DNA from: a bacterium
GTDB taxonomy: Bacteria > Patescibacteriota > Minisyncoccia > Phycocordibacterales > UBA2100
Assembly: GCA_030674455.1 (NCBI GenBank)
Contig: JAUSGQ010000035.1
Coordinates: 1 to 61,653, forward strand
DNA: 61,653 bases
Direction of reading: 5' to 3'
Shown: positions 33,874 to 61,653 of the stretch, piece by piece
Numbering within the stretch: position 1 is the stretch's first letter
Layout: each line of letters starts with the position of its first letter
Made by a program: the position numbers and the translations under genes
The notes under the pieces: generated by a model
Seen by the model: the letters and a program-made list of their open reading frames with translations, nothing else
What the model was told of the DNA's origin: nothing
Database searches by the model: none

Positions 33874-34606
33874 GGGATAAGCGTTTTTTCATAAACAGGG
33901 AAGCCTTGTGCAAGGCGTCTATGTTGCCGATATCAAACCATTCCTTCTTGAGCATGTGCGCGCGCAAAGTACCTTCTTCGAGATACAGGGAATTTACTGA
34001 AGTAATCTCATATTCCCCCCGCGCGCTTGGCGGGATTTTCCTGATTTTCTCAAACACCGTGTTGTCGTACACATATAGGCCGGTGACAGCCAAATTACTT
34101 TTTGGTTTCAGCGGCTTTTCCTCCAGCGAGAGAATGCTGCCTTTATTATTGACCTCCGCGATGCCAAAATGCTTTGGGTCCGGCACTTTCTTCAAGAACA
34201 CAGTTGAACCTTTCTTAAACGACTTAATGGCGGGAGTTATGTCGTCCAAAAATATGTTGTCGCCCAAAAATAGTACGCAATTGTCTTTGCCTACATAGTC
34301 TTCTGCGATAAAGAGGCCGTAGGCGATGCCGTTCGGTTCGTTTTGTATGCCGTATACGATTTGGATCTGTTTCGCGTGGGTCGATTTTGGGACGAAATGC
34401 TGCCCTGAGCCGAGCAATCTCACAAACGAATCAATATGGTGAGGGGAGGTGACTATCATTATCTTTGTTATGCCGGCATCGACCAGCTTTTCTATCGCGT
34501 AGTAAATGACCGGCTTGTTGAACACCGGCAATAAGTGCTTGTTTGTAACTAGCGTAAGCGGATGCAGTCTGGTGCCCGAACCGCCCGCTAGAATAACAGC
34601 TTTCAT
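33863..34606 (-). CDS. rmlA: glucose-1-phosphate thymidylyltransferase
   Basis: ILAGGSGTRLHPLT..NKHLLPV, LGDNIF, EEKP, TGLYVYD, SARGEYEIT, WFDIG. Confidence 0.92.
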   Translation of the reverse strand: MKAVILAGGSGTRLHPLTLVTNKHLLPVFNKPVIYYAIEKLVDAGITKIMIVTSPHHIDSFVRLLGSGQHFVPKSTHAKQIQIVYGIQNEPNGIAYGLFIAEDYVGKDNCVLFLGDNIFLDDITPAIKSFKKGSTVFLKKVPDPKHFGIAEVNNKGSILSLEEKPLKPKSNLAVTGLYVYDNTVFEKIRKIPPSARGEYEITSVNSLYLEEGTLRAHMLKKEWFDIGNIDALHKASLFMKKRLSHEK

Positions 34607-34727
34607 CCCGTTAGAGGCAGTCCGCCCACCGGCGGACCGTACCTGATTTATTGCTGATAATCGACCACACTGATTCTCTGCACAGATGTTCCATATGTAT
34701 AATTTGTCTTCCGCATCCTCTAACGGG
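34607..34727 (-). mobile_element. MITE-like element family B copy 1 (121 bp) at the rmlA start codon
   Basis: Minus strand: ATGAAT|CCCGTTAGAGG...CCTCTAACGGG|ATGAAA; 11-bp TIR, internal GTCCGCC/GGCGGAC hairpin. Confidence 0.8.
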
Positions 34728-34772
34728 ATTCATCCCAGCCATACTATACTCGCCGTGTTATAGTGTCCAATC

Positions 34773-35516
34773 ATGTCGGCAGAAGGCAAGAAATCTGTAT
34801 GTGTGATCCTTGCCTATAATTGCGCCAATCTGCTAGAGAATACCTACAAACGCATTCCCGCTGGCTCGGTAGACAGAATAATTCTCGTTGACGACGCATC
34901 AACGGACAATACGCTTGAAATCGCAAAGAAACTCGGTATTGAATGCTATACCCACCAGCATCTCGGGTATGGAGGCAACGTAAAATATTCCATCAAGAAA
35001 GGGATAGAACTAGGCGCCGAATATATCGTCGATTTGCACGGAGACGGTCAGTACGATCCGGCCGCAATTCCATCCGCCCTTGCGAAAGCAAAAGAAGGAT
35101 ATGACCTAGTCTTGGGCTCTAGGTTTTTTGATATAAAACAGCCTTTGCGCGACGGAATGCCTCTGAGCCGCTATCTTGCGAATATCGGCTTAAGCGCGAT
35201 TGAACGTTTTGTTCTCAAACTGCCGGTATCGGAGTTTCATACTGGATTTAGAGTTTATACAAAGACGCTCGCAGACACGGTCGCACTGGAAAACACGTCC
35301 AACAATTTCCTTTTTGGTTTCGAAATTATAGCGCAGACCGGATTCTGCGGGCTCAAGATAGGAGAGATACCCATTCGCTGCGATTACAAATCGGAACATA
35401 CGTCGATATCAATTCCCCAATCCACGGTATACGCATTTCAAACGTTCAAAACCTTGGCACTCTACCTGCTGGCGCGGCTTGGATTCAAAATAAAGTTATT
35501 CAAATGTGGAAAATAG
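34773..35516 (+). CDS. glycosyltransferase family 2 (polyprenol-phosphate sugar synthase-like)
   Basis: AYN, LVDDASTD, GYGG, HGDGQYDP, VLGSR, HTGFRVY. Confidence 0.9.
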   Translation: MSAEGKKSVCVILAYNCANLLENTYKRIPAGSVDRIILVDDASTDNTLEIAKKLGIECYTHQHLGYGGNVKYSIKKGIELGAEYIVDLHGDGQYDPAAIPSALAKAKEGYDLVLGSRFFDIKQPLRDGMPLSRYLANIGLSAIERFVLKLPVSEFHTGFRVYTKTLADTVALENTSNNFLFGFEIIAQTGFCGLKIGEIPIRCDYKSEHTSISIPQSTVYAFQTFKTLALYLLARLGFKIKLFKCGK

Positions 35517-35528
35517 ACATTAACGAGC

Positions 35529-35951
35529 ATGATAAAGAAACTGCTTGAATTGGTACAAAGGCATCAGCAGATATTTAAATTCCTGATAGCGGGCGGGTTC
35601 GCATTTGCCGTGAACATCGTCGTGCTGTATGTACTCACGGACATTTTCGACATTTACTATCTGGTTTCCACAGTGGTGGCGTTCCTCATTTCATTCTTGG
35701 TCAGCTTCGTTCTCCAAAAGTTCTGGACATTTCAAGATGCATCTAAGGACAACTTACATCTTCAGCTCCCTCTGTATTTAAGTATGCAAGTCGCGAATCT
35801 GGGACTCAATGCGTCCCTCATGTATGCGTTCGTGGAATATCTCCATCTCTGGTACATCCTTTCTCAAGTTATTATTTCTCTCGTTCTTGCGGTCATTGCT
35901 TTTATTATAAACAAAAAGTACATCTTCAAACCTCAAGACATCCCCGCTTAA
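35529..35951 (+). CDS. GtrA family flippase-like protein
   Basis: QIFKFLIAGG, four TM helices, SFVLQKFWTF, FIINKKYIF. Confidence 0.92.
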   Translation: MIKKLLELVQRHQQIFKFLIAGGFAFAVNIVVLYVLTDIFDIYYLVSTVVAFLISFLVSFVLQKFWTFQDASKDNLHLQLPLYLSMQVANLGLNASLMYAFVEYLHLWYILSQVIISLVLAVIAFIINKKYIFKPQDIPA

Positions 35952-37627
35952 CGGATCTTGCGCACGATATAGGAATTGCCGAGTTGCTTAGATGAGAAAA
36001 AGTCCGGGAGAGCGTTTGTGTCTTGGGGGGCCACGAAGCAAGCTTCCATGTGAATTTGAAAACATGTTCCCGCTCTAATCTCATCCGCTGTGCACGGGTT
36101 CGCGCAGTTGCGCTTAATCATCCATATCGAATGTGTGCCGGCAAAACGCTCGATGTAGGCGGCATCTTCTTCATCAGAATATGTAATGAAAGCAAGAGGT
36201 TTGAATACAGGGTCTTTTGGCAGAATATCGCGATTTTCCAATAGAAACTTGAACCTGCCCATATCGCTTCTCGTTTCACCCAATAGCGGCAGTGATTCAT
36301 AGTTAACCGGCAGAGTCAGTCGTTTCGCCGTGTGGTCGGCGATAAAAACGTTAGCGGGCGAATTATATTTCTCCATAATCGTTGCCAGCAATACAGTTTC
36401 CGAAGAAGGCCGCCAGAATAGTTGTATAGCGTGGACGCCTATGGCAAAAAATAATACGCCAGAGAGTACGAGCGCGCCCCTCACCGCCTTCGGACTAAGC
36501 TCGCTGAGAAGAATTGCTGCGGAGAAACTGCAGGCAATCGTAAGAATAATCGCGTATCGCGCGCCGGCGTCAAGACCGATGCCCGCATGAAAAATAAGGT
36601 ATGTCAGAACCGGATGCAGGCATGCGATTGCAATCCACAGGCGTTTACGCGAATCCGCAAGAATCGATTTGCAATAATATATCAAGAAAAGCAGCACAAT
36701 CGCTGCGGCAATGTAGAGCAACGAAAGCGGCTGTGTGGTAACGGTAAAGATAAGCGGCTTCGTGAGGCGCGCGAACCAATCAATGGCGCCCTCGGCCGTT
36801 CTCGATGTCGTTTCTTTTAATTGAGCAGATATCGTATATGCCCGCCATACGAATGATATCTGGGTAGCGGAGAATAAGACAATCAGATACCAATACTTCA
36901 AGCAGTAACTCCACAGGTCGCGAAAACTGACATGCCGAAGCAGAATCGCGTAAAGCGCGAGTAGCGCGATAGAAAATACTCCGAACCAGCTTTGGAAGAA
37001 GGTAAGCACGCCACTCCAGACGAAAAGCACTATGTAATATTTTTTGTCTATGAACGGGCGCCCCAGGCGTGCGAGATAATATTCCTGTGCGATAAAAATG
37101 GCGCTCATCGCGGAAACAAAGATGATGTAGAACACCCACATCTTCGCAGTGTGCAGAAATTCAATCACCAGAACATTGCTCAAAAGCAAAAAAAGAAAAA
37201 GTATCAGCGTGAGAGCAAGCTCGCGCGGAATTTCTCTCTTCTTGAAATAAAAGAAGAAGAAAAGGATAGTTGCAAGAGCAGAGATTCCATTAACCAGCCG
37301 AAGTATATGCAGCAGTTCTCCGGTATTCTGCGCTACCCAAAGCTTTGCCGCCATTATTGAAAAGTCCGAAGCTGCGACTACCGCGCCCAAAACAGGCAGC
37401 ATCACGAGCGTGTCAATGTACGTTTGCGGACCGCCGTAATAGGCGCCCGATGGAGTAAACTCCCAGCCAGGGATAGTGTGTTTCTCTATGGAGAACAGGG
37501 AAGTGCTTAAAAAATAGCTTTCGTCTCCGATAATATCCGGATTATTTCCGAACGGATTCGGGTTCAAAATAGCGAACGAGAGAAATATGAAAAGGCCGAT
37601 CAGGACTATCTTCTTTACTGCAGTCAT
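35948..37627 (-). CDS. multi-TM protein, probable GT-C fold glycosyltransferase
   Basis: Acidic DE motif after TM1 (IIGDESYF), about 11 TM helices, RY motif, soluble C-terminus; next to GT2 and GtrA. Confidence 0.65.
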   Translation of the reverse strand: MTAVKKIVLIGLFIFLSFAILNPNPFGNNPDIIGDESYFLSTSLFSIEKHTIPGWEFTPSGAYYGGPQTYIDTLVMLPVLGAVVAASDFSIMAAKLWVAQNTGELLHILRLVNGISALATILFFFFYFKKREIPRELALTLILFLFLLLSNVLVIEFLHTAKMWVFYIIFVSAMSAIFIAQEYYLARLGRPFIDKKYYIVLFVWSGVLTFFQSWFGVFSIALLALYAILLRHVSFRDLWSYCLKYWYLIVLFSATQISFVWRAYTISAQLKETTSRTAEGAIDWFARLTKPLIFTVTTQPLSLLYIAAAIVLLFLIYYCKSILADSRKRLWIAIACLHPVLTYLIFHAGIGLDAGARYAIILTIACSFSAAILLSELSPKAVRGALVLSGVLFFAIGVHAIQLFWRPSSETVLLATIMEKYNSPANVFIADHTAKRLTLPVNYESLPLLGETRSDMGRFKFLLENRDILPKDPVFKPLAFITYSDEEDAAYIERFAGTHSIWMIKRNCANPCTADEIRAGTCFQIHMEACFVAPQDTNALPDFFSSKQLGNSYIVRKIR

Positions 37628-37669
37628 TGGTGCAGTATATAACGCAGAATACAGTTGAGTCGAAAGCTT

Positions 37670-37820
37670 ATCTGTCGAGGATAGTGAGGGGAATGAAAGA
37701 GTACGCTCTTTTATGCCCGAGCGGCGCAGACAGCAAAGATGGGGTATCTTTCATCTGTCGAGGATAGTGAGGGGAATGAAAGAGTACGCTCTTTTATGCC
37801 CGAGCGGCGCAGACAGCAAA
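37670..37820. repeat. two identical 68-bp structured direct repeats separated by 15 bp
   Basis: 37670-37737 equals 37753-37820; internal AAAGAG-TACG-CTCTTT hairpin. Confidence 0.85.
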
Positions 37821-37860
37821 AGTTATCTAACTTTTCCCCATTCTTCAACTATCGGGTACA

Positions 37861-38535
37861 ATGACCGAAATAGCAGCTATGGACCGTGTAAAAATCCCAA
37901 TTTTGAGCGCAATTTCTGGGGCGTTATCCGGTAAGACCATTGGCAGGGTGTATTTTAACGAAGCGGTTCGCGGGGTAGTCCCTGGGCTTTCCGGGCGCGT
38001 TCTTGACCTTGCAGGAGGCAAAAGCCCCAGTTACTTACCGCTTCTGCCGAATTCGATTGAGCTTGTGCGAACGGATATAACAGCTTCCCCCGGCGTCACG
38101 AAAGTGGATATCAACGAGCCGCTTCCATTTCCCGACAAATCATTTGATGCTGTCTTTCTATTTAATGCGCTTTATGCAACAGAAGACCCTTCTAGGCTTG
38201 CAGGAGAAATCCATCGCGTCCTGAAACCCGGAGGTTCCTGGTATCTCGCGTCTCCTTTTGTTGCAAATGAGATGCCCGAGCCGCACGACTATCTCCGCTT
38301 TACCGCCGAGGGGTTGGAGCGGCTTTGTCATAGTGCAGGATTTTCTTCAGTGGAAATTGTGAGACTGGGGGAGCGTGCAACTGCCGCCACACAGCTTCTG
38401 CACCCGTTTTTTCTTTTTAATGTTATTAGGGCACTCGTATATTCTCTGGCGCTTCTTTTCGACATGCTTATTCCCAGCTCTGTTAAAACGACACACCCAT
38501 CGCCCATCGGTTATTTTGTACGTGCAACGAAATGA
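37861..38535 (+). CDS. class I SAM-dependent methyltransferase
   Basis: VLDLAGG, LPFPDKSFDAV, EIHRVLKPGG, PHDYLRFT. Confidence 0.9.
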   Translation: MTEIAAMDRVKIPILSAISGALSGKTIGRVYFNEAVRGVVPGLSGRVLDLAGGKSPSYLPLLPNSIELVRTDITASPGVTKVDINEPLPFPDKSFDAVFLFNALYATEDPSRLAGEIHRVLKPGGSWYLASPFVANEMPEPHDYLRFTAEGLERLCHSAGFSSVEIVRLGERATAATQLLHPFFLFNVIRALVYSLALLFDMLIPSSVKTTHPSPIGYFVRATK

Positions 38536-38659
38536 ATACACATCATGAGCAAGAGTGTTATTGAATCCGCAAAATCATATATAAGCGAGCGAGCAACCGC
38601 TGCACATGAACAGCTCTCTTCGAAGTTTTGGGCAATGATAAGCTCTTTGGAAGACAGGT

Positions 38660-39832
38660 CTACGTCGTCTCCATCTCAAATATGAGAGGATGTTTCACCC
38701 CGGCAAGTTCCTTGTACAAAGCAATTGTGTTGTCCAGTGTCCTTGTCATCGTAAAGAATTGAGCGCGCGCGAAACCGCGTTTGATGAGGGTTGCCCGCAC
38801 GGGCGCTTTACAGACAAGCGCGAGTGCCTCCGCAATCGCATTGGTGTCTAACGGATTGACAATGATAGCGGCGTTACCTACTACCTCTGGAAGCGATGTC
38901 ACAGAGGACGCGATAACTGGTGTGCCACATGCCATAGCTTCAATTAAAGGGACTCCGAAGCCCTCATTAATTGATACGAAAGCAAGAGCGGCTGCTCCTC
39001 GGTAGAGTGCCGGAAGATTTTCTGTCGGTATATAGCCGAGAAAATGGATATCTGCGCTGAAGGGTGACAGCGGAAGCGCTCCAAATGTTTTCTCGTATTT
39101 TGTTTTGACGCTGCCGCCCAAGGCCAAAATCTCTTTACTTTTTGGATTGCGTTCTCGGTACTTCACGTATGCAGATACAAGATTCCCAACATTTTTGTGT
39201 AATTCGGGGCGGCCGAGAAAGAGAAAGTACGTATGAGCTTTTATATGGTATTGATTGAGTATGCGAGATACTGTCTCATCACTTGGTAGGGATTCATATA
39301 CTGGGTCAAGGCCGTTATAGATGGTGCGGACTTTTTCAGGGGGCATGCGATAGGCATATATGATTTCTTTGTTTGCATATTCAGAAACGGCAATCATCGT
39401 ATCAACATATTTCTGGAACCAGGTAAGCGTGTAGTTGAATACGCGGCGAGAGAACGTCCATGTGCCCCCCTGAACGAGAACGTCGCCACCACCGTGCGCC
39501 ATGACGAGGGTGCGTCGAGCCGGAAACAGCCAAAAGAACGGGAATATCCGTGGCTTAAGCCAATGCACGACGTCAAACCTCTCTTTGGTTGTCAGGCAAA
39601 ATCGTATGAACGACACAAAGCGCGTGGCGTATGGCAGTGGAATCTGGTGGAGCAATATCTCGCGGGCTTTTTTGTAGAGCGGTTCTTCCGGCATGGGCTT
39701 TGAATGGATAAGCGTGAGCTCTATCTCATTTTCCGTAACGAGCCGCTCAATGAGGCGGCGAAAAAAAAGCGTGCGCTCCGGCCGCAGGTCAAAATCATCT
39801 GCCATGATGGCCACGCGAATTTTCTTTTGCAT
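38660..39832 (-). CDS. glycosyltransferase family 4
   Basis: [35 protein letters not shown]. Confidence 0.92.
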
Positions 39833-39884
39833 CGAGTTGCAGTATACGGGCTTAAAGGAAAATTTCCATATACTCGAAAAGCTC

Positions 39885-40667
39885 TCACGTAACCTCTCCC
39901 TTCACCTCGTGGAAATCAAGACCTACTTCCTCGGCGATTTTCTTCTTGCAGGCAACACGAACCTTACTCAGTTCCCGAAGGTCAAGAGTGCGGCGCCCCA
40001 TTTCTTCCAGACCGAATTCATCCTCTCGCCCTTGGCGTATCGCAGATTCTATATCCCATACGTGGCCGTTAATCTCTTTCATTTCTTCAACCCACGCATC
40101 CTTGACGTCAATGCCTTCATTGCGGTAGCTATCAAGCACCTTTCGATAGAATGTGTATTCTTTTTTGATAAAAGCGCGGTTATTGTCGTGATGCAACCGC
40201 TCAAGCTTGAGCATGGCGATGGTGACTCTATCAATAGCTTCAGGGAGCGGCAGTTTGAGACTGGTGTCGGAGGCGCTGGATTCAATCGGCACCTCGTAGA
40301 AATCAATCTTTACCTCACCGGCGATTTGACCCTTAATGATATTTCTTTCATTGTTCTTGTCGCGGAGTTGCACGGCAAGACGCCCGACATCTTCAAGCGT
40401 CAGCTTGTTTTTTCTCGCCTCCCGTATGGCGGCCTCCACATCCCATAGCGCGGCGTTAGTCTCTTTCATGCGCGTAATCCATTCGTCCTTGATGACGAGA
40501 CCGTCATCTCGGTAGCTGTCCAACACTTTCCGATAGAAATCGTATTCCTTCTCGGCGATGATGCGGGATTGTTCGTCGGTCAGCCGTTCCCGCTTGAGCA
40601 TGAGGATAGTAATTCTATCGATAGCTTCAAGGAGAGGGACTTTGAGGTTGGTGTTTACGTAGCGCAT
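39885..40667 (-). CDS. tandem-duplicated DUF6165-like helical protein
   Basis: Two ~130-aa repeats: EAIDR(I/V)TI.MLK.ERL...KEY.FYRKVLDSYR...MKE.N...WD.E.AIR. Confidence 0.7.
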   Translation of the reverse strand: MRYVNTNLKVPLLEAIDRITILMLKRERLTDEQSRIIAEKEYDFYRKVLDSYRDDGLVIKDEWITRMKETNAALWDVEAAIREARKNKLTLEDVGRLAVQLRDKNNERNIIKGQIAGEVKIDFYEVPIESSASDTSLKLPLPEAIDRVTIAMLKLERLHHDNNRAFIKKEYTFYRKVLDSYRNEGIDVKDAWVEEMKEINGHVWDIESAIRQGREDEFGLEEMGRRTLDLRELSKVRVACKKKIAEEVGLDFHEVKGEVT

Positions 40668-40741
40668 CGGATGAGTATATCAGGCCGCTTCCTGCTGTGC
40701 GCGAAAGGAGGTCTTTTTTTGAGTGAGTTATAATTATCGCT

Positions 40742-41623
40742 ATGCCACTTCTTGTTGCGGTTTTATATAATCTTGCGTTGCCCTACTGGGACACGCTTAG
40801 GAAAAATCTTGCGCAAAAGGGAGTCTCATCGCTGACGATTCTTCACGCACCCAATCTCATCGGCCACCCCATAGGGATAGCGGTTCTATTCGCGCTCGGA
40901 CTTTTTGCGATGCCATCCGACCCCACCTTTTTCTTATTTTGGTTCGGAATGATAGTGATTGCGTCCGTGGCGCAAACTTTCAACATCTGGGGATTGCTTG
41001 AGACGAAATTTTTTGGCGTACAAGTCCTCAATAGCTTGGGATTTCTCGTCAACAGTATCGCGGCGGTGATCCTTGTTGGAGAACATCTGAACTCTATTCA
41101 ACTCATAGCAATCGCACTCGCTACTATCGGAGTGGTTTGTTTTGCTTGGCCGCAACGCATGGCGCCCGGTACCTTCAAGTGGGACAGAGGCGTCATGTTC
41201 GTCATCCTGTATCTCGTACTTTCTGGGTTCTCGGCGGCACTCTATAAGCTCGCCACATTTCACACGCCCGATTACAACACGTTTCTTACGGGCCGTTTTG
41301 TTGGCGACCTAATCGGATGGACGATTGTCTGGGTCATCGGTCTTACTTTAATCAGCCATCGCAGTCCTGCCGCAGAATTAGTTCGCTGTGTGAGCAATCC
41401 TTCGGGGCAGAAAATGATAGCGGGTATTATTCTCTCAACGTTGGTAAGTTCGTGGCTGATATACACGTTGCCGCTCTCAACGGTCGCAATGCTCGGGACT
41501 CTCACGATTCCGAGCGCGTATTTGTACGGACGCTTCAAATATAATGACAAGGTAACAACGCGAATGTGGGCAGGAACTGCTCTTATTGTTCCGGCGGTGC
41601 TACTTTTTATTTATTTCCGATAG
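40742..41623 (+). CDS. DMT/EamA-like ten-TM transporter
   Basis: About 10 TM helices in two halves; AVILVGEHLN..Q pattern. Confidence 0.7.
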   Translation: MPLLVAVLYNLALPYWDTLRKNLAQKGVSSLTILHAPNLIGHPIGIAVLFALGLFAMPSDPTFFLFWFGMIVIASVAQTFNIWGLLETKFFGVQVLNSLGFLVNSIAAVILVGEHLNSIQLIAIALATIGVVCFAWPQRMAPGTFKWDRGVMFVILYLVLSGFSAALYKLATFHTPDYNTFLTGRFVGDLIGWTIVWVIGLTLISHRSPAAELVRCVSNPSGQKMIAGIILSTLVSSWLIYTLPLSTVAMLGTLTIPSAYLYGRFKYNDKVTTRMWAGTALIVPAVLLFIYFR

Positions 41624-43404: not shown

Positions 43405-43421
43405 ACAATGAATCAGGCAAA

Positions 43422-44544: not shown

Positions 44545-44545
44545 A

Positions 44546-46480: not shown

Positions 46481-46538
46481 AGTATAGCAAGCATCGTGTT
46501 TTGTTAAGTTGTATGGAAATTTTCATCCGATTGGAGCT

Positions 46539-49109: not shown

Positions 49110-49150
49110 GCCATATGATTTTTTGGATGCTCTGAATAGCCTACTATTTT

Positions 49151-50767: not shown

Positions 50768-50893
50768 ACCTTGTCAAACGCTACTTTCGGAAACAGTATA
50801 TATTGACCGAACCTTCTTTCATAATGTCGTTGCCAAAGCATGGGCTACTCTCTATAATGCGCATTTCTACGTATAAATCCCGTTAAAGACCGC

Positions 50894-52120
50894 ATGACTA
50901 CATTAGCTACCGATAACACACGACTGCGAGATGTCTCTAACAGGGTGAAGCGAACTGGCAAACTCAAAGTGGCGATTGTGGTCAATGATCTCTTGCGGGG
51001 AGGGGCGCAGAGGATAATTCTAGATATCGTGCGCAACGCGCCGTCTCATTTCGAGTTTGTGGTTATTGCAATGAAAGCGGACGATGTTTTTACAGAACAT
51101 GCAACCTCAACTCTACGCAAGGATGTCGAAGAAGCCGGGGCTCGAGTTTTCAACATTTCACATACGCGGCGCTTCAAGCTCGGCGATGTATGGAAGCTTC
51201 GCGCGCTTTTGCGAAGCGAGCGTCCCGACATAGTGCATACGTTCCTTCCTCACGCGGGAACTCTGGGTCGTATTGCTGCGCGCATGGCCGGAGTCCGTGC
51301 AATTGTTACCACACAGTGCAATGTCCGCGTCGCGTATGATTTCTGGCGCTATTGGATCGATCGGTTAACGCTTATTCTGGCGCATGCATGGACGGGATCG
51401 ACGGAAGGAATTGAACTCGAATATGGAGGATCAATCGCGTACTTTAGCAATGCAGAGTGGAGACGTGGGCGCCGTCATTTCACTATCCCTTCCGGCGCGG
51501 ACTTAAATGCGATTACGGCATCGCGAGCGCACCTCGATCGCGAAAAGAAGCGAAAAGAACTTGGCCTGCCCGCGGATGGAGTGATGATTCTTATGACGGC
51601 GCGTCTCATCAGGTGGAAGGGGCACACCGATCTCGTGCGGGCGCTCGTTCATCTGCCGCCTTCTGTGCACGTTTTTTGCGCCGGATGGGGTCCGCTTCAC
51701 GAGGAATTATTACGGCTCGCACAAGATCTTGGTGTTTCTAATCGCTATCATCTTCTCGGATCGCGTCAAGATACTCACGAGCTCCTTGGAGCCACCGATG
51801 TCTACGTCCAAGTCCACAGTACGGCTTCTGACGGCCGAATATGGATGGGACCGAATATCTCGCAGACGGAGGCTTGTGCTGCAGGCGTACCATCGGTCTC
51901 CACGCGCGTCCCGCTCATAGAATATTTGATAGAAGATGGCATCACGGGGAAACTTGCGGAGCCTAATAATCCGCGGAGCCTTGCGGCTGCGATTACGTGG
52001 GTCATAGACCATCCGAAAGAGGCTCGTACTATGGCGAAGGCCGCTCAAGAGCGCGTGCGCGAACGCTACACTGTGGAGCATATGGTGAGTCAGTATGCGG
52101 ACATGTATCTTTCTTTGTAG
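50894..52120 (+). CDS. glycosyltransferase family 4
   Basis: GGAQR, PDIVHT, TARL..WKGH, EACAAGVP. Confidence 0.88.
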   Translation: MTTLATDNTRLRDVSNRVKRTGKLKVAIVVNDLLRGGAQRIILDIVRNAPSHFEFVVIAMKADDVFTEHATSTLRKDVEEAGARVFNISHTRRFKLGDVWKLRALLRSERPDIVHTFLPHAGTLGRIAARMAGVRAIVTTQCNVRVAYDFWRYWIDRLTLILAHAWTGSTEGIELEYGGSIAYFSNAEWRRGRRHFTIPSGADLNAITASRAHLDREKKRKELGLPADGVMILMTARLIRWKGHTDLVRALVHLPPSVHVFCAGWGPLHEELLRLAQDLGVSNRYHLLGSRQDTHELLGATDVYVQVHSTASDGRIWMGPNISQTEACAAGVPSVSTRVPLIEYLIEDGITGKLAEPNNPRSLAAAITWVIDHPKEARTMAKAAQERVRERYTVEHMVSQYADMYLSL

Positions 52121-52166
52121 CGGAATAGTATTATGACCGCGCCGTAAGGATTTTTGCGCAACAGAT

Positions 52167-53981: not shown

Positions 53982-54037
53982 AATTCTTCGGTGCAACTCA
54001 CTTATCTTTTCCTGCATTAACGGAGGACGAAAGTCAA

Positions 54038-55264
54038 TCAGTGGACCATCTCTTTTATGAATTTCGTTACGGTCTCTGTCACGTAGCGTATATGTTCATC
54101 GCGAAGGCCATGATGACAGCCGATTAATAGACTGCGCTCCAATACCATGTCCGCATTCGTCAGTTTGCCGTGGATTCTAAACGGCGTTTCTTTATACGCC
54201 GGGTGACGGGCGATGTTGCCAGCGAAGAGAACGCGGGTTTGGATTTTATGCTCCTCAAGGTAGCGCATGAAATTGACCCGCTTAATTGGCGATTCCCTCC
54301 GTAGTGTAATTGGATATGCCAGCCATCGCACGTCGGAATCGGGCAGTTCGCGAGGAAGCGCGAAATGTTCAGGATATGTCTTGAAAAAAGCATTGAGCGC
54401 CAAGAAATTCTTCCTGCGTATACGCGCGAATTCCGGCAATCGCTCGAGTTGTACAAGGCCGAATGCCGCCTGAAGGTCAATTGGCTTAAGGTTGTATCCT
54501 ATCCGATTGAATACGAACTTTCCGTCATGCGCGATTCCCTGAAGCGAGAAAGAGAAGCGCTTATCGGTAGATTCATCAAATGCTTCTGGCAGTGCCCGTC
54601 CCCAATCGCGCCGCATCTTTGCATCGTCGGCGAATTCTTTATTTTTGCACATGAGCATGCCGCCTCCGCCAGCCGCAGTGATTATGTGCGAAGCGTAAAA
54701 ACTTGTGGTAGAAGCATCCGCGTACGCGCCAGTTGGTTTGCCATCTATGCAGGCACCTATTGTATCGCAACTGTCCTCAATAAGTTTAAGTTTGTGCTTG
54801 TCGGCTATAGCACGCAGGCGTTTCATGTCATTCAGATTGCCGACGAGATGCGGAATCATGAGTACCTTCGTTTTCTTTGTGATTGCCTTTTCCAACTTGT
54901 CGATGTCTATGTTGAATGTATCCGCTTCGATATCTACTAATACTGGAATCAGACCGCATTGGAGAAGTGGATTTACTGTCGTAGCAAACGTGCAAGCCGG
55001 AGTTATTACTTCCGAACCTCTTGGAATCTGAAGTGTGTCAATCGCGAGCAAGTTTGCCGATGACCCGGAATTTACGAACAGTCCGAATTTTTGCCCGAAT
55101 ACTTTTGCAACCGCGACCTCAAAACGGCGCGTATATTCACCCGGCCCGAGCCAATCTGAATTCAAAGATTCGAGAACGGCGGCGATTTCGCGCTTGCCGT
55201 AAACCGCTCGGCTGTACCAGACCCAATCCTTACCCGGAATAAATGACGATTTTGTTTCTGCCAT
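54038..55264 (-). CDS. DegT-family PLP/PMP enzyme of the DdhC(RfbH)/ColD 3-dehydrase type
   Basis: VNSGSSANL, EDSCD, TSFYASHIIT (His at the usual Lys position), RDWGR, GYNLKP, QTR.LFAGN. Confidence 0.82.
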   Translation of the reverse strand: MAETKSSFIPGKDWVWYSRAVYGKREIAAVLESLNSDWLGPGEYTRRFEVAVAKVFGQKFGLFVNSGSSANLLAIDTLQIPRGSEVITPACTFATTVNPLLQCGLIPVLVDIEADTFNIDIDKLEKAITKKTKVLMIPHLVGNLNDMKRLRAIADKHKLKLIEDSCDTIGACIDGKPTGAYADASTTSFYASHIITAAGGGGMLMCKNKEFADDAKMRRDWGRALPEAFDESTDKRFSFSLQGIAHDGKFVFNRIGYNLKPIDLQAAFGLVQLERLPEFARIRRKNFLALNAFFKTYPEHFALPRELPDSDVRWLAYPITLRRESPIKRVNFMRYLEEHKIQTRVLFAGNIARHPAYKETPFRIHGKLTNADMVLERSLLIGCHHGLRDEHIRYVTETVTKFIKEMVH

Positions 55265-55318
55265 GGGTCAGATTATAACCTAAAAAATGACTGTTTGTCG
55301 CGCGGCAAACGTGAAGCA

Positions 55319-56488
55319 TCAGGCACTTTTCTTGTTTGCGAGGGACTCAAGGTTTTCAACGAATTGCCGTGATACAACGTCCGCGTCAAAAACGCGCACG
55401 CGCTCTACAGCTCTTTTCGCGTACGCATTGCGTTCATTGGGATTGTTGAAGAAAAACAGAATGCATTTCACGAGGCCCGCGATGTCTTCTTTTGGGAACG
55501 TCATACCGGCATCTCCCGCGACCCACGCAGGGGCGGTATTCTCGGTCGAGATTATTGGTAGACCGCAACCAAGCGCGTCCGCTACTACTCTTGAGAATGG
55601 GTCAGGCCAGCGGGAAGGATGGACGAATACATGCGCGTTTTTGTAGAAGCCGAGCAGTTCTTCTCGGCTTTTCCATCCGTGCAGGAAGACTCGTTCGGTG
55701 AGGCCGTTATCTCGGATAAAATCTTTCAATCGTTCCTCCTCGTTTCCGCGTCCGATTATGTGTATGTGAATGGCATTCGGCAATTGGAGAGCCGCTTTGA
55801 CAATCAGGTCGGGTCCCTTATCCGCTATTAAGCGCCCAGCGAATATCACACGGAACGATTTTGTGTCATTGCCGAACGGCGTAGGCGCTTCTTTGTTCGT
55901 TACTCGCTCTATTGGAGCGGGAAGGACAATGGATGAACGCGCCCTGTATCCGAATCGCTCAAAACATTCTTTTATAGTTGGCGAGTCAAAGAAAAGAAGG
56001 TCAACGCTTCGCATGAGCGGGATGCCGATAAGCTTTTGCCACAGGTACCATTTGATTGTGTGGATGCGATGGCGCGCGCGACCAAATAGGCGTGTAAGAA
56101 TATTTCCTGAAAAGGGGGGGGGACTAGTGAAACCCATGCCAGGCGCGTAATTGTTAATGCTTGCTACTACCGGAGCCGTTCCTCCTCTTTGCTTGTATAT
56201 TCCTCCAGCCCACATCACAGTCGGCCCGTAGAGGTGGTGGATGTCGGCGTCCGCGTTCTCGCTCATCATCTTTGCAATGTGCCGCTGGAGTGCCAGAAAG
56301 CCGCCGCTGAAATTTTCCTCGCGCATCTCGCAAGGTTTTTGCGCGTAGTTGTTATCGTCGGAGGAAAAAGTAGTTAGTATTGGAATATGACCTTGCGTGA
56401 TAAGCGCGCGAATAAAAATCTCTAGCGAATGATGCGAGCCCCCGCCGGAAACCGTGTTGTATCTCAACGTGTAAATATAGACTCGCAT
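55319..56488 (-). CDS. glycosyltransferase family 4
   Basis: FAGRL..DKG, HPSRWPDPFSRVVADALGCGLP. Confidence 0.88.
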   Translation of the reverse strand: MRVYIYTLRYNTVSGGGSHHSLEIFIRALITQGHIPILTTFSSDDNNYAQKPCEMREENFSGGFLALQRHIAKMMSENADADIHHLYGPTVMWAGGIYKQRGGTAPVVASINNYAPGMGFTSPPPFSGNILTRLFGRARHRIHTIKWYLWQKLIGIPLMRSVDLLFFDSPTIKECFERFGYRARSSIVLPAPIERVTNKEAPTPFGNDTKSFRVIFAGRLIADKGPDLIVKAALQLPNAIHIHIIGRGNEEERLKDFIRDNGLTERVFLHGWKSREELLGFYKNAHVFVHPSRWPDPFSRVVADALGCGLPIISTENTAPAWVAGDAGMTFPKEDIAGLVKCILFFFNNPNERNAYAKRAVERVRVFDADVVSRQFVENLESLANKKSA

Positions 56489-56623
56489 ACCCGCACACTA
56501 AGTGTGCCTTAATTTTATGCCGAGGCAATTCCAGATGCACCAAAGCTTTTCTCCCATTATTGCAAGGTCATGCATAGCGACTGGGTTCATAATAAGAGGC
56601 GAAGGCATACTTAGTGTGCGGGT
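56489..56623 (-). mobile_element. MITE-like element family C (135 bp, 22-bp TIR) abutting a GT4 start codon
   Basis: ACCCGCACACTAAGTGTGCCTT...AAGGCATACTTAGTGTGCGGGT (1 mismatch); no clear TSD. Confidence 0.65.
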
Positions 56624-56760
56624 GGGTGGGTTTAGCGTTCATAAATCCACGGCATCTCTGATAGGATTCGGCATGACAACATGGCTTGAATACTTGATTA
56701 TAGGGATGAAAGAAGCTAGTATCACACTGTACTGTTGCCCCCGAGTCCCCTCAATGTAGC

Positions 56761-58506
56761 ATGCCCTCACATCCTAACAAATTCACGAATGTGGTACGTC
56801 TCCTCATATCAGCGTTTGGGTCGTATTACAAGCATCTCATCGTAATCCTAGTTCTCGGCTTTTTTGCGAGCCTTCTTGAAGGGCTTGGAATCAGCGCGGT
56901 AATCCCGCTTTTTTCATTCGTGACCGGAGGCGGAGGATTTACGGCCGACACGGTCACGCAAGTATTTTCAACAATCTTTGGGTTCTTCGGATTACCCTAC
57001 ACCTTCCGATACTTGCTCTTTTTCGTAGGCGTTTTGTTTGTCGTAAGAATTGTATCGCTGTTCGCGATTCAGAATGTAACCGCCCGCATTGTACTTGGAT
57101 ATGAGCGCGACACGCGCAAGCGCATGTTTAATGCGACGGTACAGAGCCGCTGGCCGTTTCTGTCAATGCAAAAAGTCGGGCATTTAGACCAGCTTCTCAT
57201 AACTAATACAGCCATCACCGCCGGTTTTTTCGGAATATTTTCTACGGCTATCCTCATTATCACGAAAACGATTGCGTACATCGTTATTGCACTAAACATT
57301 TCGCATATCATCGCGCTCTTGAGCATTGCTGTTGGTGCCGTGCTTTTTTTCGTACTTCAGCCTCTTTTCCGCATAAACAAAAGATCTTCAACAGAAGCCG
57401 AACGGCTGAATCGTTCACTCGCGCATTTTGTAAGCCAGCACATTTTGGGAATGAAATCTGTAAAATCAGCCGGCGTGGAACCCCCCGTGTCTCTTGAGGC
57501 CTTGTCATATTTTGACAATATACGAAAAATGCATGTGAATATCGTGACGATACGAGGATTTTTGGAAATGGGCATCCAATTTGCCGGACTCGCGTTTGTC
57601 GCCGGCGTGTTTACGTACATGTACAGAATGCCGGGGTTCAACTTCGCGTCGTTTGCTGTCATCGTATACGCGGTGAATCAGATTTTTACACAGATACAAA
57701 CGGCGCAAATTCAACTTCACGCGCTTTCCGAGATGCTCCCGTATCTCTCGCGGGTGCGCGCGTACCAGAACGATGCTGAAGCGAATGCCGAACCTATGGG
57801 AGGCACTGATTCTGCCGCCATCGCGGAAGGAATAGAGTTCCGGAATGTCTCGTTCTCGTATCCCAAACGGGGGGAGGTTTTGGGCGATGTGTCCTTCTCT
57901 GTAAAGCAGGGACAGATTGCCGTAATTGTGGGTCCGTCAGGCGTTGGCAAATCCACTATCGCAGATTTATTATTGCGTCTCATAGAGCCGACCTCCGGTA
58001 CCGTCCTTGTGGACAACAAAGATGTTCGCACGGTCTCTGTTGTGAAGTGGCGCAAAACTCTGGGTTACATACCGCAGGACCCTTTTCTTCTTAATGATTC
58101 AATCCGCAACAACATCGCTTTTTACAATCCATCAATGACGGACGATATGATTAGCGATGCCGCGAAGCGTGCGAATATCAACGAATTCATAGAATCGTTA
58201 CCAGAAAAATATGACACGCATATAGGTGATCGTGGCGTTCTTGTCTCCGGCGGTCAGAGGCAGAGAATTGTCTTGGCACGGCTCCTCGCGCGGAATCCGA
58301 AAGTTCTGATACTGGATGAAGCAACAAGCGCCTTGGACCCAGAATCCGAGCGCGCCATCATTCGATCAATCGAAAATCTGCGAGGGAAAGTTACCGTTTT
58401 CATCATCGCGCATGGCGGGGAGATGCATGCCTCGGCTGATATCACGATCAAGCTTTCAAATGAGCGTGTTGCCTCAGTAACAGAGACCTCTTCTGTACGT
58501 GGATAA
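56761..58506 (+). CDS. ABC transporter, fused TMD-NBD (PglK/MsbA-like flippase)
   Basis: LEGLGIS..IP N-terminus, six TM helices, GPSGVGKST, VSGGQRQR, LILDEATSALD. Confidence 0.9.
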   Translation: MPSHPNKFTNVVRLLISAFGSYYKHLIVILVLGFFASLLEGLGISAVIPLFSFVTGGGGFTADTVTQVFSTIFGFFGLPYTFRYLLFFVGVLFVVRIVSLFAIQNVTARIVLGYERDTRKRMFNATVQSRWPFLSMQKVGHLDQLLITNTAITAGFFGIFSTAILIITKTIAYIVIALNISHIIALLSIAVGAVLFFVLQPLFRINKRSSTEAERLNRSLAHFVSQHILGMKSVKSAGVEPPVSLEALSYFDNIRKMHVNIVTIRGFLEMGIQFAGLAFVAGVFTYMYRMPGFNFASFAVIVYAVNQIFTQIQTAQIQLHALSEMLPYLSRVRAYQNDAEANAEPMGGTDSAAIAEGIEFRNVSFSYPKRGEVLGDVSFSVKQGQIAVIVGPSGVGKSTIADLLLRLIEPTSGTVLVDNKDVRTVSVVKWRKTLGYIPQDPFLLNDSIRNNIAFYNPSMTDDMISDAAKRANINEFIESLPEKYDTHIGDRGVLVSGGQRQRIVLARLLARNPKVLILDEATSALDPESERAIIRSIENLRGKVTVFIIAHGGEMHASADITIKLSNERVASVTETSSVRG

Positions 58507-58508
58507 CT

Positions 58509-59930
58509 ATGCGGCTCTTCCTAATCAATTTGGGGGGTAAGCGGCGCCGCCAGATAGATGCGGCGCGAGAACTGCAAAAGAAACACACAATACAGTATTG
58601 GACCCGTAATGACACTCATTTCCTAATGGACGAAAGCGAGTTCCCCGGCACGGTCTTTCACGTGTATCGAGATGCACTGCAAGGCATACCTGCAAAAAAT
58701 ATTGATGCCGCCAGTTTTGAACCGTGGAGTGCCGAGGATATCGCAGAATACGCTGAAACAGAATGTGAGTTTATAACCATGGCCGATAAGTGGTATCCGG
58801 ATTGGTCTGTCAACCGGCGTAAGGATTTGTATTACGACATGCTCCGATATTGGGGAGGAGTGCTGGATAAGTTCAGGCCCGACTGCATCATTCTGCTCGG
58901 GGTTCCGCACGAAATGTTTACCTTTGTGTTGTATCGGATAGCCAAGCATCGTGGAATACGAACAATCATCCTTGATAACACTGTATTGGATACTGACCGC
59001 TACGTCTTGATAGATGACTACACGGTCGGAAATACAACTCTCGCGAAGGCGAGAGAAAGCGATCGGCTCGTTACCATTGATGATCTATCGCCTGACATGC
59101 GCGACTATTATCTGCGGCGTTCACAATCCGAGAACCCGCTTCCTCCGTATATGCAAGAATTTAAGAAAGACCATACTCTGTGGCAAAGTGTGCGCCGCTT
59201 CATCCGCGTATCTATTGCATTCGTAAAAGACGGTACAATCGTCGAGCGTGGAGTATTGAAATTGCTAAAGATGTTTAAATCGAGTCTCAAGGACGAGCAT
59301 CATTCGAACGAGCGTCTGGCAGATTTCGGAAAACCGTATGTATATTTCCCGCTCCAGTATCAACCAGAACTTACGACATCTCCTTTAGGCGGCGTGTACG
59401 TCGACCAGTTGCTCGCGATAAAAACGGTCGCCGCCGCGTTGCCGGAAGGATGGGAACTCTATGTGAAAGAGCACCCTGCTCAAATCGGTGTCCATGGAGG
59501 GAACACGACACCGGCCCGCTATACCGGCTTCTATAAATCTATTGCCGAGATTCCTCATACACGCCTCGTTCCTGTTGCTACAAATACATTTAAGCTGATG
59601 GATAATGCACAAACAACTTCTGCTCTGACAGGTACGGCGGCATGGGAGAGTGTCCTGCGTGGCAAACCCGCGGTAGTATTCGGGTACCCGTGGTTCATGA
59701 ATGCGCCGGGTATAATTCGGGTTGGGAGCGCGGAGGATTGCCGAAAGACATACGAGAAAATCGCACATGGATTTAAGCCGCAGGAAGCCGATACGCTTCG
59801 ATATTTGCAGGCTGTAGACGAAGTTAGCGTTAAGGAACATCTCTATACAAACGCTCCTGACAGGGAAGGAGAGGGGCTCGCAATGTACCGAGCGATAGAG
59901 GGTGCCCTCAACATAAAACCAAATAAATAA
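58509..59930 (+). CDS. capsule polysaccharide biosynthesis protein (KpsS/KpsC-like)
   Basis: YVYFPLQYQPE, LYVKEHP, TGTAAWES..RGKP..VFG.PW. Confidence 0.78.
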   Translation: MRLFLINLGGKRRRQIDAARELQKKHTIQYWTRNDTHFLMDESEFPGTVFHVYRDALQGIPAKNIDAASFEPWSAEDIAEYAETECEFITMADKWYPDWSVNRRKDLYYDMLRYWGGVLDKFRPDCIILLGVPHEMFTFVLYRIAKHRGIRTIILDNTVLDTDRYVLIDDYTVGNTTLAKARESDRLVTIDDLSPDMRDYYLRRSQSENPLPPYMQEFKKDHTLWQSVRRFIRVSIAFVKDGTIVERGVLKLLKMFKSSLKDEHHSNERLADFGKPYVYFPLQYQPELTTSPLGGVYVDQLLAIKTVAAALPEGWELYVKEHPAQIGVHGGNTTPARYTGFYKSIAEIPHTRLVPVATNTFKLMDNAQTTSALTGTAAWESVLRGKPAVVFGYPWFMNAPGIIRVGSAEDCRKTYEKIAHGFKPQEADTLRYLQAVDEVSVKEHLYTNAPDREGEGLAMYRAIEGALNIKPNK

Positions 59931-59932
59931 CC

Positions 59933-60655
59933 ATGACTAAAAAAAGCCCGCTCTCTCGGCGCGACATCCAGTCCTTTACGCAAGAAATCGGGAAGTACGG
60001 TCTTCCGCCGAGGAAAAAAGATTATTACGGAATAATTTATAGGATTCTCGAGAAAAATAACATAAAGTCAGTGTTGGATATTGGAACAGCATCTGGCGAT
60101 TTCTTGTATTTTATGCCGGAGACAATTAAAGGACTGGGAATAGATAAGAGCAAAGACTTGATTAAAATAGCAAAGGACACCCGCAAGAAAAAGAATCTTA
60201 AATTTGAATGCGCCGACATTCTTTCGGATAAATTTGATAAGAAATACGAATGCATAACCATACTCGGAACTCTGCTGACTTTTTTAGATTTTCGTCCAGC
60301 GCTTGAAGCTTGTTTTAATTTGCACCCGAAGCTTATCATTATCAATGATTTTTTTAATACAGATGGAATTGATATACAACTTGGCTTTCGGTATGCCAAC
60401 AAACCAAAAAACGCATATCAATTTGCCTACAATATTGTTTCGTTAGCCACAATGAAAAGTTTTCTTGAAGAAAAATCTGCGCAATTCTCGTTTGAGGAAT
60501 ATAAACTTAAGACAAGACTACATAGAGATGAGGCACATCCGATGTACAATTACCACGCTGAATTAAATGGGGAGACAATTATTACCAATGGTATGGGCTT
60601 AATCCTTCGGGGCTATAACTTAATAATAATTCCCAAAGGGAATTATGGAGTATAA
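59933..60655 (+). CDS. class I SAM-dependent methyltransferase
   Basis: SVLDIGTASG, GIDKS..LI..A; visibly AT-rich. Confidence 0.85.
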   Translation: MTKKSPLSRRDIQSFTQEIGKYGLPPRKKDYYGIIYRILEKNNIKSVLDIGTASGDFLYFMPETIKGLGIDKSKDLIKIAKDTRKKKNLKFECADILSDKFDKKYECITILGTLLTFLDFRPALEACFNLHPKLIIINDFFNTDGIDIQLGFRYANKPKNAYQFAYNIVSLATMKSFLEEKSAQFSFEEYKLKTRLHRDEAHPMYNYHAELNGETIITNGMGLILRGYNLIIIPKGNYGV

Positions 60656-60683
60656 TCAGACCATTAGTAAATAATTAAACTAT

Positions 60684-61370
60684 ATGGATTATCTAGAAAA
60701 GAATAAGGATTTTTGGGATAGTGGATGCCCTGCGGAGAATCCCGAAAGCCATGTATTCAGAACATACGGCCGTATTCTAAAACCCGAACTTGGTATTACA
60801 GGAGAAAAACATGAGAAACTTCTTGACTTTGCCTGCGGAGAAGGAGCTAACATGCTGTTCTTCAAGAAAAAAGGCCTCGATGTGTACGGGGTAGAGATTT
60901 CAGAATCTAATTTAAAGAAGTGCCGCGAAAAGATGTCCGACATCGCAGACCATTTTCAGATGATTGACCCCAAGCCGTCGAAAGGTGATATGTGGTATGG
61001 GGGGGGTTTTGATGTCGTCATAGGAAATCATGCTTTTTATTACTACAACGACACAGATCTGGAAATCCGATTAGAAACAATATATAACATGCTCAAACCT
61101 GGCGGGATAATTTACGCCACTATGATGGGTACGAAAATGACGCAGTTCTACGATAACTCTAAGGAAGTCGGGGATGGATTGAGCGTGGTGAACTTCAAGC
61201 ACTCGCGTTTTGAGATTAAGGATTACTATATGAACTTTATGGAGTCGGAGCAGGATTTATTACATCACTTCAAACTATTCAAGAAATTACATCTCGGCTG
61301 GTATGCGGATAAGTATAGAGAGGATGAGAAAGAAAATTTCCACTATAACTTTGTTGGGATAAAAGAATGA
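60684..61370 (+). CDS. class I SAM-dependent methyltransferase
   Basis: LLDFACGEG, YGVEIS, FDVVI, MLKPGG. Confidence 0.88.
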   Translation: MDYLEKNKDFWDSGCPAENPESHVFRTYGRILKPELGITGEKHEKLLDFACGEGANMLFFKKKGLDVYGVEISESNLKKCREKMSDIADHFQMIDPKPSKGDMWYGGGFDVVIGNHAFYYYNDTDLEIRLETIYNMLKPGGIIYATMMGTKMTQFYDNSKEVGDGLSVVNFKHSRFEIKDYYMNFMESEQDLLHHFKLFKKLHLGWYADKYREDEKENFHYNFVGIKE

Positions 61371-61436
61371 TAAGTGTTGTGTGTGAGTGTGTGGCGCAGA
61401 CTTTATGTCCGTGATAGGATTTATTTTCATATGAAT

Positions 61437-61636
61437 CCCATTAGAAGCCATCTTTCGGGAGCAGATATAGGATCGAGGTAGTAAAACAGAAATCAACATT
61501 ACTTATGCAGAAAAAAGCCTGCCCGCCAAAGCCAGAGCGATGCAAGTTATACTTAAAATAAATGTTATGTATTTACTAACTAATCAAGTCAGTAACCATC
61601 GCAACTTTAGGCGATGGCAGGCGGGCTTCTAACGGG
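61437..61636 (+). mobile_element. MITE-like element family B copy 2 (200 bp, TSD ATGAAT) before a probable start codon at 61637
   Basis: ATGAAT|CCCATTAGAAGCC...GGCTTCTAACGGG|ATGAAT; nested GCCTGCCCGCCA/TGGCAGGCGGGC stem. Confidence 0.78.
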
Positions 61637-61653
61637 ATGAATTACGACACGAC

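Follow-up and report, generated by a model that had tools for sequence, protein, structure and literature searches.

Short inverted repeats that rebuild the start codons they enter in a groundwater bacterium of the UBA2100 lineage, and their probable origin from a very small GIY-YIG nuclease element

When a bacterial gene is preceded by a second copy of its own start codon, with a short inverted repeat lying exactly between the two, what is the repeat and how did it come to be there? The question is raised by contig JAUSGQ010000035.1 (C12) of assembly GCA_030674455.1, a member of the UBA2100 lineage of the Patescibacteriota, which was analyzed over its whole length of 61,653 nucleotides (nt; hereafter the window). 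A first-pass annotation of the window had described two elements, named family B, at 34607–34727 on the minus strand and at 61437–61636 on the plus strand, with terminal inverted repeats (TIRs) of 11–13 nt and unrelated interiors, and had proposed that they were miniature inverted-repeat transposable elements (MITEs) that regenerate the start codon into which they insert. The coordinates and TIRs were borne out by our analysis, and the interiors of the two copies proved to come from different subfamilies. We show here that family-B elements have inserted, have duplicated their targets, have rebuilt start codons and are biased in their sites, and that relatives of them code for a nuclease. It is probable that these repeats, including a decayed third copy at 50879–50944 that the annotation had missed, are non-autonomous deletion derivatives of a very small nuclease-encoding mobile element. 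The host genome comprises 1,254,426 bases on 66 contigs with 50% G+C, its assembly is 97.8% complete, and the sequencing runs that contain it are groundwater metagenomes.

Copy 1 extends from 34606 to 34728 on the minus strand, that is, the 121-bp core together with one element-borne base at each end (T..A in the orientation of the gene), and its TIR is perfect over 11 nt, or 13 bp in the fold when the flanking T/A is counted. On its upstream side is an ATGAA (34729–34733) that contains the original start codon (34731–34733) and the upstream copy of the duplicated TGAA (34729–34732), and on its downstream side is the rebuilt start (34602–34606), in which the A at 34606 is the end of the element and is followed by the downstream TGAA (34602–34605); over six bases the flanks read ATGAAT on one side and ATGAAA on the other. 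The downstream ATG opens an open reading frame (ORF) of 247 amino acids (33863–34606, minus strand) that is glucose-1-phosphate thymidylyltransferase-like (RmlA-like), and for which we retain the annotation's label rmlA, a name that does not come from a family scan. A TATAGT box resembling a −10 element (34743–34748, minus strand) lies 9 nt before the upstream ATG.

Evidence that copy 1 is an insertion came from the orthologous loci of the genus. Among 16 rmlA loci that included the N-terminus, 14 were without an element and two were filled, and in the three closest syntenic loci (G047, G004 and G006) the same TATAGT-like box was retained and was followed by a single ATGAA(G/A), as had been predicted for an empty site. 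The two filled loci, in G044 and G009, carried different family-B elements at exactly this rmlA codon, those in G009 being in tandem and including a nested 27-bp palindrome. Empty orthologous sites were also identified at other insertions of this genome, in three of three relatives at both C27:57510 and C10:54965, and in G044 and G004 at C27:67778; the empty sites at these three further loci carried a single ATGTAT, ATGAAA/G or ATGGAC. At C27:67778, the empty site of G004 reads GTGGAC, and G047 has been filled independently, its insertion lying between GTGGAT and ATGGAC. For copy 2, a search of 40 further genomes from the genus (E 1e-30) returned no orthologue of the downstream protein of 220 amino acids and no empty site. 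When groundwater contigs from three runs were aligned to 34000–35300, one contig, possibly the source, spanned the filled site and other pieces shared the termini only; the empty rmlA form was not seen in the contigs of these three runs, which is not evidence of its absence.

The junctions reveal how the start codon is rebuilt. In the 34 copies of at least 50 bp that were counted (five solo palindromes of 27–37 bp were left out), the bases immediately outside the CCC/GGG ends were T..A or C..G in 31, and because these outer bases are complementary they belong to the element, so that the true ends of family B are Y-CCCGTTAGA...TCTAACGGG-R and the true duplication is one of 4 nt, TGAA in the case of copies 1 and 2. 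As such, the ATGAA(T) flanks reported in the first-pass annotation are real, but their interpretation as a duplication of 5–6 nt has to be replaced by one of 4 nt plus element-borne end bases. Exact duplications of 4 nt were found in 15 of the 34 copies, of 5 nt in two and of 3 nt in two, whereas a repeat of 5–6 nt was seen in only six copies if the end bases were not assigned to the element. Nearly all of the duplications have the form T..A (TGAA, TGTA, TGGA, TCAA, TCCA, TGTTA and TGGTA), although TGCG also occurs. Flanks of the type ATGAAC-element-GTGAAG, with an ATG upstream and a rebuilt GTG downstream, were found three times. A direct duplication of 6 nt cannot give such flanks, and it is therefore the terminal purine of the element that, together with the duplicated TG, restores an ATG or a GTG and sometimes converts one into the other (ATG to GTG). 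We also considered translational bypassing from the upstream to the downstream codon, since some flanks differ in the third codon base only; it was rejected because those differences are explained by the Y/R end bases and because there is no stop or take-off signal after the upstream codon.

To what extent the two copies of the annotation are representative was apparent from the census of the genome, for which one mismatch was allowed per 9-nt terminus. It returned 42 pairs, and after removal of three that were overlapping or spurious (C12:34584, C27:60157 and C37:18840), 39 elements of 27–226 bp on 16 contigs were kept. The TIR was perfect over 9–13 nt in 26 of the 39 pairs and had a mismatch within 4 nt of the end in the other 13. 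Within the window, CCCRTTAGA occurs five times versus 0.70 expected, a number reached in none of 100 shuffles. Eighteen of the 39 elements adjoin the ATG, GTG or TTG start of an ORF of 127–758 amino acids, or 19 of the 39 if copy 2 is counted, which compares with 622 of 40000 random sites (1.6%; binomial P ~1e-22) and fits the association with start codons that had been claimed from the two copies. RTGAA was the host start in 13 of these 19 cases, and ATGAA opens 141 of 780 long ORFs. The bias was not confined to this genome: in five other genomes, of three genera, an RTG followed directly after 114 of 322 TCTAACGGG ends, for which chance predicts 3%. Exact-termini pairs were present in 15 of 31 sampled relatives, this genome included, and a control with the reversed pattern returned no pairs. 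Taken as a whole, family B has the features of a MITE: TIRs, duplications of varied sequence, dispersed non-coding copies (all six frames are closed in each of the six copies of 200–226 bp) and empty sites. MITE subfamilies with related interiors were recognized at several loci of this genome, at rmlA in G044 and in other species, and since related interiors recur at separate loci, these subfamilies must have moved after the loss of the gene.

Not all copies adjoin a start codon. From a reading of their flanks, C36:1093 and C44:18404 lie in −35-like TTGAC(A) boxes, C19:13246 and C59:29711 lie in TGnTATAAT extended −10 boxes and C56:55527 lies at the 3' end of a tRNA, and in each of these cases the duplication restores the box or the tRNA end. 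Several copies also have an internal structure of their own. Those of 200–226 bp are composites, in which a self-pairing module of ~108 bp, GCCTGCCCGCC...GGCAGGCGGGC (61517–61626 in the window; C27:57510, C10:54965, C27:67778, C59:29711 and C63:25461), breaks up a family-B MITE close to one of its ends, and a translation of this module, LPARQSQSG, recurs at the end of a public homologue of the nuclease described below (P0004). Solo palindromes of 27 bp, consisting of both family-B ends and a 3-nt loop, were found at C45:25151, C49:12668, C59:70562 and C60:37573 and at L014 in G009; two such palindromes are nested in other copies with 4-nt duplications, and thus the minimal mobile unit may be as short as 27 bp. 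In place of a duplication, ACCTGY before the element and RCAGGT or GCAAGC after it recur at C10:7876, C37:44166, C10:24200, C27:49724, C49:12567, C63:64070 and L036. The recurrence of these flanks suggests a variant with longer TIRs, elements nested in other copies, or copies that have recombined with each other.

Is the siting at start codons active, or is it what is left after selection? The strongest alternative to a mechanism that seeks gene starts is that the element has a weak preference for TNNA, best TGAA, and that the pattern has been made entirely by purifying selection, the survivors in a genome that is 86% coding being those insertions that rebuilt a start codon, a promoter box or a tRNA end. 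This explanation draws support from the copies off start codons, which rebuild −35-like, TGnTATAAT and tRNA 3' end sites, from the almost uniform T..A form of the duplications, from an intergenic fraction of only 13.5%, and from the many targeted starts without a nearby −10 box, which speak against a promoter-guided mechanism. Two observations are difficult to reconcile with it. There are 206 ATGAA sites at predicted starts, as against 550 in intergenic DNA and 2681 within genes, so that sequence preference and selection alone predict that ~27% of ATGAA-flanked copies would be at starts, yet all seven of those scorable for site were at starts (~1e-4, based on crude gene calls), which speaks for more than mere survival. 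In addition, the same bias is apparent in the MITE subfamilies that moved after gene loss, and as these are biased without a gene, the bias cannot be put down to selection for nuclease expression. Given that non-start copies also rebuild their sites and that the gene calls are crude, we consider that selection alone, although somewhat unlikely to be the whole explanation, is a serious possibility.

Upstream of 774 long ORFs of this genome there was no Shine-Dalgarno peak (GGAG, AGGA and GAGG each occurred seven times or fewer at any position), and a TANAAT peak was found at −12 from the ATG (32 matches versus a background of 0–5), which places the start of transcription at or near the A of the ATG. 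The genes thus look mostly leaderless. The 3' end of the 16S rRNA, sought for a check of the anti-Shine-Dalgarno sequence, is not in the assembly. The commonest junction between genes on the same strand is a 4-nt ATGA overlap (41 cases). Two further candidates were tried and rejected. Targeting of RNA-polymerase open complexes was not supported, as a −10-like box was missing from the vicinity of roughly half of the starts that are targeted. A promoter inside the right end of the element was also discarded: the bases from −13 to −4 before the host start are TACTTCTAAC, or TATCTC from −13 to −8, and from a reading of the flanks no TANNNT fits the −12 position that this genome prefers.

A second alternative is that the hairpin and the short reading frame in front of rmlA are not selfish DNA but a regulatory leader of the host that acts on genes for sugar nucleotides and other functions as a translational attenuator or switch. 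There are features of copy 1 that would be expected of a leader. The stems of copies 1 and 2 fold, the elements forming hairpins of ~115 nt whose feet are conserved and whose loops vary, and the stable stem closes right beside the start codon; the fold of copy 1 has a z score of −3.55, with equal folding in none of 200 shuffles, and the GC-rich hairpin (GTCCGCC-CACC-GGCGGAC, 34620–34637) that had been noted next to its right TIR was confirmed. An upstream ORF (uORF) of 40 codons (MNPVRG...ADCL; 34611–34733, minus strand) runs from the upstream ATG at 34733 to a TAA inside the right TIR, so that its end adjoins the rmlA start, the first base of the TAA being 7 nt before the ATG with 4 nt intervening, and several of the targets are glycan genes. 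The leader of copy 1 is as the first-pass annotation had described it, but it does not generalize, since of the 13 MITE copies in which the upstream start is retained only 3 have a uORF that extends into the right TIR, when chance predicts ~2. Stop–start coupling is thus not kept in the MITEs, and on the same ground we rejected a "ribosome relay" maintained in them by selection. Nor is a host leader easily squared with the variable presence of the element at the same codon in close relatives, with the filling of one site by different elements, with uORFs that are random in length and frame, or with copies in promoters and at a tRNA end. Moreover, the interiors are not conserved (in an alignment of 23 copies a consensus of 70% was reached at the termini only), and elsewhere the same ends bracket a nuclease gene. 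We consider this explanation quite unlikely.

That nuclease gene lies in longer elements with the same ends. A search of 201 genomes sampled from the order identified 12 with exact family-B termini 235–330 nt apart. Of 15 loci that were fetched (two further matches in G168 were outside these 15), 13 were units of 269–280 bp with a single ORF of 86–95 amino acids, and full-form elements were located in other genera of the order. Autonomous-looking copies, for which the annotation had advised a search, do exist, but not in this genome. In seven of the 13 units the ORF runs from the host ATG through the left end of the element (MNPVR.. or MSNPVR..), and in the other six it starts at an ATG ~20 nt inside; in 12 of the 13 the protein ends in ...LTG and the stop codon, TGA, shares bases with the rebuilt host ATG, and these units adjoin ORFs of at least 191 amino acids. 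All 13 have T..A end bases, and nine have a 4-nt duplication. The GIY-YIG family PF01541 was matched by all six of the proteins that were scanned (four of family B and two from the genome analyzed here, G000), with E values of 1.7e-10 to 6.2e-18, and it spans residues 10–77 of a 95-residue protein that has no second domain. The homing endonuclease model TIGR01453 gave 17.5–24.8 bits against a cut-off of 56 for proteins of 86–99 residues, and the best solved relative, from a match to PDB sequences, was the UPF0213 protein 1zg2 (E 3.5e-5).

Family-B nucleases are 66–73% identical to each other, and homologues of them are numerous in public data: a library of 1.84 billion representative proteins yielded 9040 matches at E 0.001, of which 1059 remained at 1e-10. 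Of the 150 best homologues, eight begin with M(x0-3)P[VGILA]R and 14 end in L[TS]G, and several are fusions of nuclease and host protein or contain PVR...SNG stretches of inserted mini-palindromes. The forecast that proteins beginning with MNPVR would be found was borne out by six of these 150, which begin with MNPVR or MSPVR. In the public predicted proteins P0008, P0016, P0017, P0066 and P0116 the nuclease is fused in frame to a pilin-like protein with a GFTLIE motif, which reflects either gene calls that ran through a junction or genuine fusions at pilin genes hit by the element. A query of the ESM Atlas returned only clusters of generic small GIY-YIG proteins, auto-named excinuclease C-like.

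Four small GIY-YIG ORFs are present in this genome, none of them with family-B ends. The closest match to the family-B nucleases, at 43–54% identity, belongs to a full element of the related family A (C15:59954–60250, CCCGGTAGG...CTAACCGGG), which has a TATG duplication and an ORF of 99 amino acids that starts from the host ATG, in agreement with the resemblance between the ends of the two families that had been noted before. A copy of family A is also present in the window (17868–18000, 133 bp, CCCGGTAGG...CTAACCGGG, CATG duplication). At C10:72066–72326, a small GIY-YIG gene is bracketed by an unrelated 23-bp inverted repeat, ACCCAGCACCTTGTTTGTTTATG, which probably represents a third element family. 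No inverted repeat was seen at the remaining two small GIY-YIG ORFs of the genome.

Might the repeats have been moved by an enzyme of another kind, with the GIY-YIG genes as passengers? Elements of the IS1380/piggyBac type have CC.. ends and duplications of 4–5 bp, and the CCC ends and the 4–5-nt duplications of family B resemble these; the repeats would then be MITEs of a classical DDE transposon. However, the genome contains no match to the IS1380-family transposase (NF033539), no longer unit with these ends was found among the 15 fetched loci, and in 12 genomes the sole ORF between exact termini is the nuclease, in a 269–280-bp unit with a frame that passes through both ends; a DDE parent is accordingly very unlikely. 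We regard as equally improbable single-strand hairpin elements of the REP/REPIN or IS200/IS605 type, moved by an HUH enzyme (RAYT or TnpA): the ~115-nt hairpins with conserved feet and variable loops and the 27-bp solo palindromes are what such elements would offer, but exact 4-nt duplications of varied sequence are present at 15 of 34 copies, IS200/IS605 elements make none, and the associated gene is GIY-YIG, not HUH (the genome was not scanned for an HUH gene). Integron attC sites were dismissed, as the half-sites are in the opposite order to those of attC and the copies are dispersed rather than arrayed.

Derivation from the nuclease element thus accounts best for the repeats, and on sequence grounds we propose the following mechanism. 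The full form of 269–280 bp has inverted ends that form a stem, T-CCCGTTAGA...TCTAACGGG-A, and between them one gene, that of a GIY-YIG nuclease of 86–95 amino acids. Insertion is accompanied by duplication of 4 nt of the target, usually TNNA and most often TGAA. Surviving copies immediately follow the first base of the start codon, so that the host A-TG remains upstream, and the last base of the element (A or G) together with the duplicated TG gives an ATG or GTG start downstream. The full element may capture a leaderless host promoter and its ATG for expression of the nuclease, ribosomes could return to the host gene at the ATGA stop–start overlap, and the preference for TGAA may serve start and stop alike. 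MITE copies retain the ends only, leaving a leftover uORF. Inferred rather than shown are the role of the nuclease as the mobilizing enzyme, the chemistry of insertion and the manner in which the host genes go on being translated. More speculatively, with a likelihood that we place slightly short of even, the 269–280-bp parent is a self-sufficient transposon with a sole "transposase", the GIY-YIG protein of ~90 residues, that seeks the first base of leaderless starts and also −35 and extended −10 boxes, relies on the captured promoter and ATG and on the ATGA return, and has through its MITEs rewritten the starts of ~1.6% of genes, sometimes from ATG to GTG.

Several points weigh against this proposal. 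There is no family-B nuclease gene in this nearly complete assembly, and current mobility in this genome is consequently unproven; in the absence of a cognate gene the copies are either relics or mobilized by the nuclease of the related family A. Enzymes of the GIY-YIG superfamily cut by hydrolysis, and it is hard to see how a single protein of 90 residues would carry out excision and joining and leave a 4-nt duplication. Some copies have duplications of 3, 5, 6 or 7 nt, and in 11 of the 34 no duplication can be seen. To these must be added that uORFs reach the right TIR at about the chance level, that a clear −10 box is missing near about half of the starts targeted, from a reading of their flanks, that the leaderless reading rests on motif positions, and that the gene calls behind the census of sites are crude. 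The claim that the element regenerates the start codon it enters is supported by the empty sites, the end bases and the site bias.

The two remaining copies in the window illustrate the consequences for gene starts. Copy 2 (61436–61637, plus strand) consists of the 200-bp core with end bases T..A, has a TIR of 13 nt with one mismatch and is flanked by ATGAAT on either side. Its upstream ATGAA is at 61431–61435, with TGAA at 61432–61435, and the nested self-pairing module, which is common to the copies of 225–226 bp, lies at ~61517–61626. The rebuilt start and first codons of the downstream gene are at 61637–61653, with TGAA at 61638–61641, and the window ends 17 nt past the copy. The final 141 nt of the window (61513–61653) match one end of contig C15 without a difference, and since this overlap is inside copy 2 we conclude that the assembly broke at the repeat. 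On C15, the downstream ATGAAT opens the ORF of 220 amino acids, and the "probable start" of the annotation is thereby substantiated. Copy 3 (50879–50944, plus strand) is a decayed element of 66 bp with ends CCCGTTAAAGAC and GTCTCTAACAGG and flanks ATAAAT and GTGAAG, and it adjoins the GTG of an ORF of 391 amino acids. An ATG within it, at 50894, gives an in-frame reading of 408 amino acids whose extension ends in ...SNR-V at the junction, which is the kind of N-terminal extension that had been predicted. For the annotation of candidate phyla, it follows that such insertions create start codons, N-terminal extensions (MNPVR...SNG-M) and spurious fused proteins, and the design of the element points to leaderless translation and stop–start coupling as the normal mode of initiation in these bacteria.

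If the nuclease does move these units, they would represent a prokaryotic cut- or copy-and-paste element of a new enzymatic class, smaller than any on record, and a nearly harmless parasite that rebuilds the very signal it interrupts. Each of several known systems shares a part of this description. The Correia elements of Neisseria have a TA duplication and no identified parent gene; like family B, they are ~100–160 bp in length, with TIRs, a duplication and many gene-less copies near genes, where they affect expression signals, whereas family B has a 4-nt duplication after the first base of the start codon, rebuilds the codon and has a GIY-YIG parent of 275 bp. GIY-YIG homing endonucleases, such as I-TevI and the Seg proteins of phage T4, are proteins of ~250 amino acids in which DNA binding has a domain of its own, and they use recombination to home to a single cognate site. 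They too are selfish, spread by GIY-YIG activity and leave the host gene functional, but family-B proteins have only 86–95 amino acids, and their elements, which carry TIRs and duplicate their targets, are found at many genes unrelated to one another. IS200/IS605 elements with their PATEs, and REP/REPIN sequences with RAYT, depend on an HUH tyrosine enzyme and make no duplication, IS200 being ~700 bp; they resemble family B in their very small size, hairpin ends, small nuclease-type protein and gene-less derivatives. In contrast to IS200/IS605, family B has a GIY-YIG gene and a 4-nt duplication, and its full form of ~275 bp is less than half of ~700 bp.

Among the entries listed by full-text searches, none described a start-codon GIY-YIG element of this kind. 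The closest published system is that of the Ssn nucleases with their NTS/SRM hairpin repeats (Chenal et al. 2025, Nat Commun 16:2388, PMC11893778), whose authors remark that the arrangement NTS-ssnA-NTS looks like an insertion sequence; their article also takes up IS200/IS605 and REP/REPIN elements. Both systems have a single-domain GIY-YIG protein of ~90–100 amino acids with its gene bracketed by short inverted repeats, and both have many gene-less copies of the repeat across the genome. The repeats themselves are different, as the published SRM motif matched none of 52 family-B elements with 30-nt flanks and only four sites genome-wide. Family B has ends that pair together, a 4-nt duplication, siting at start codons and ends that lie within the frame of the nuclease; in the consulted portions of the article on Ssn (PMC11893778), no target duplication, start-codon siting or empty-site polymorphism is described. 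Should the nuclease prove to move family-B units, the comparison would also offer a possible selfish origin for the published Ssn-type nucleases.

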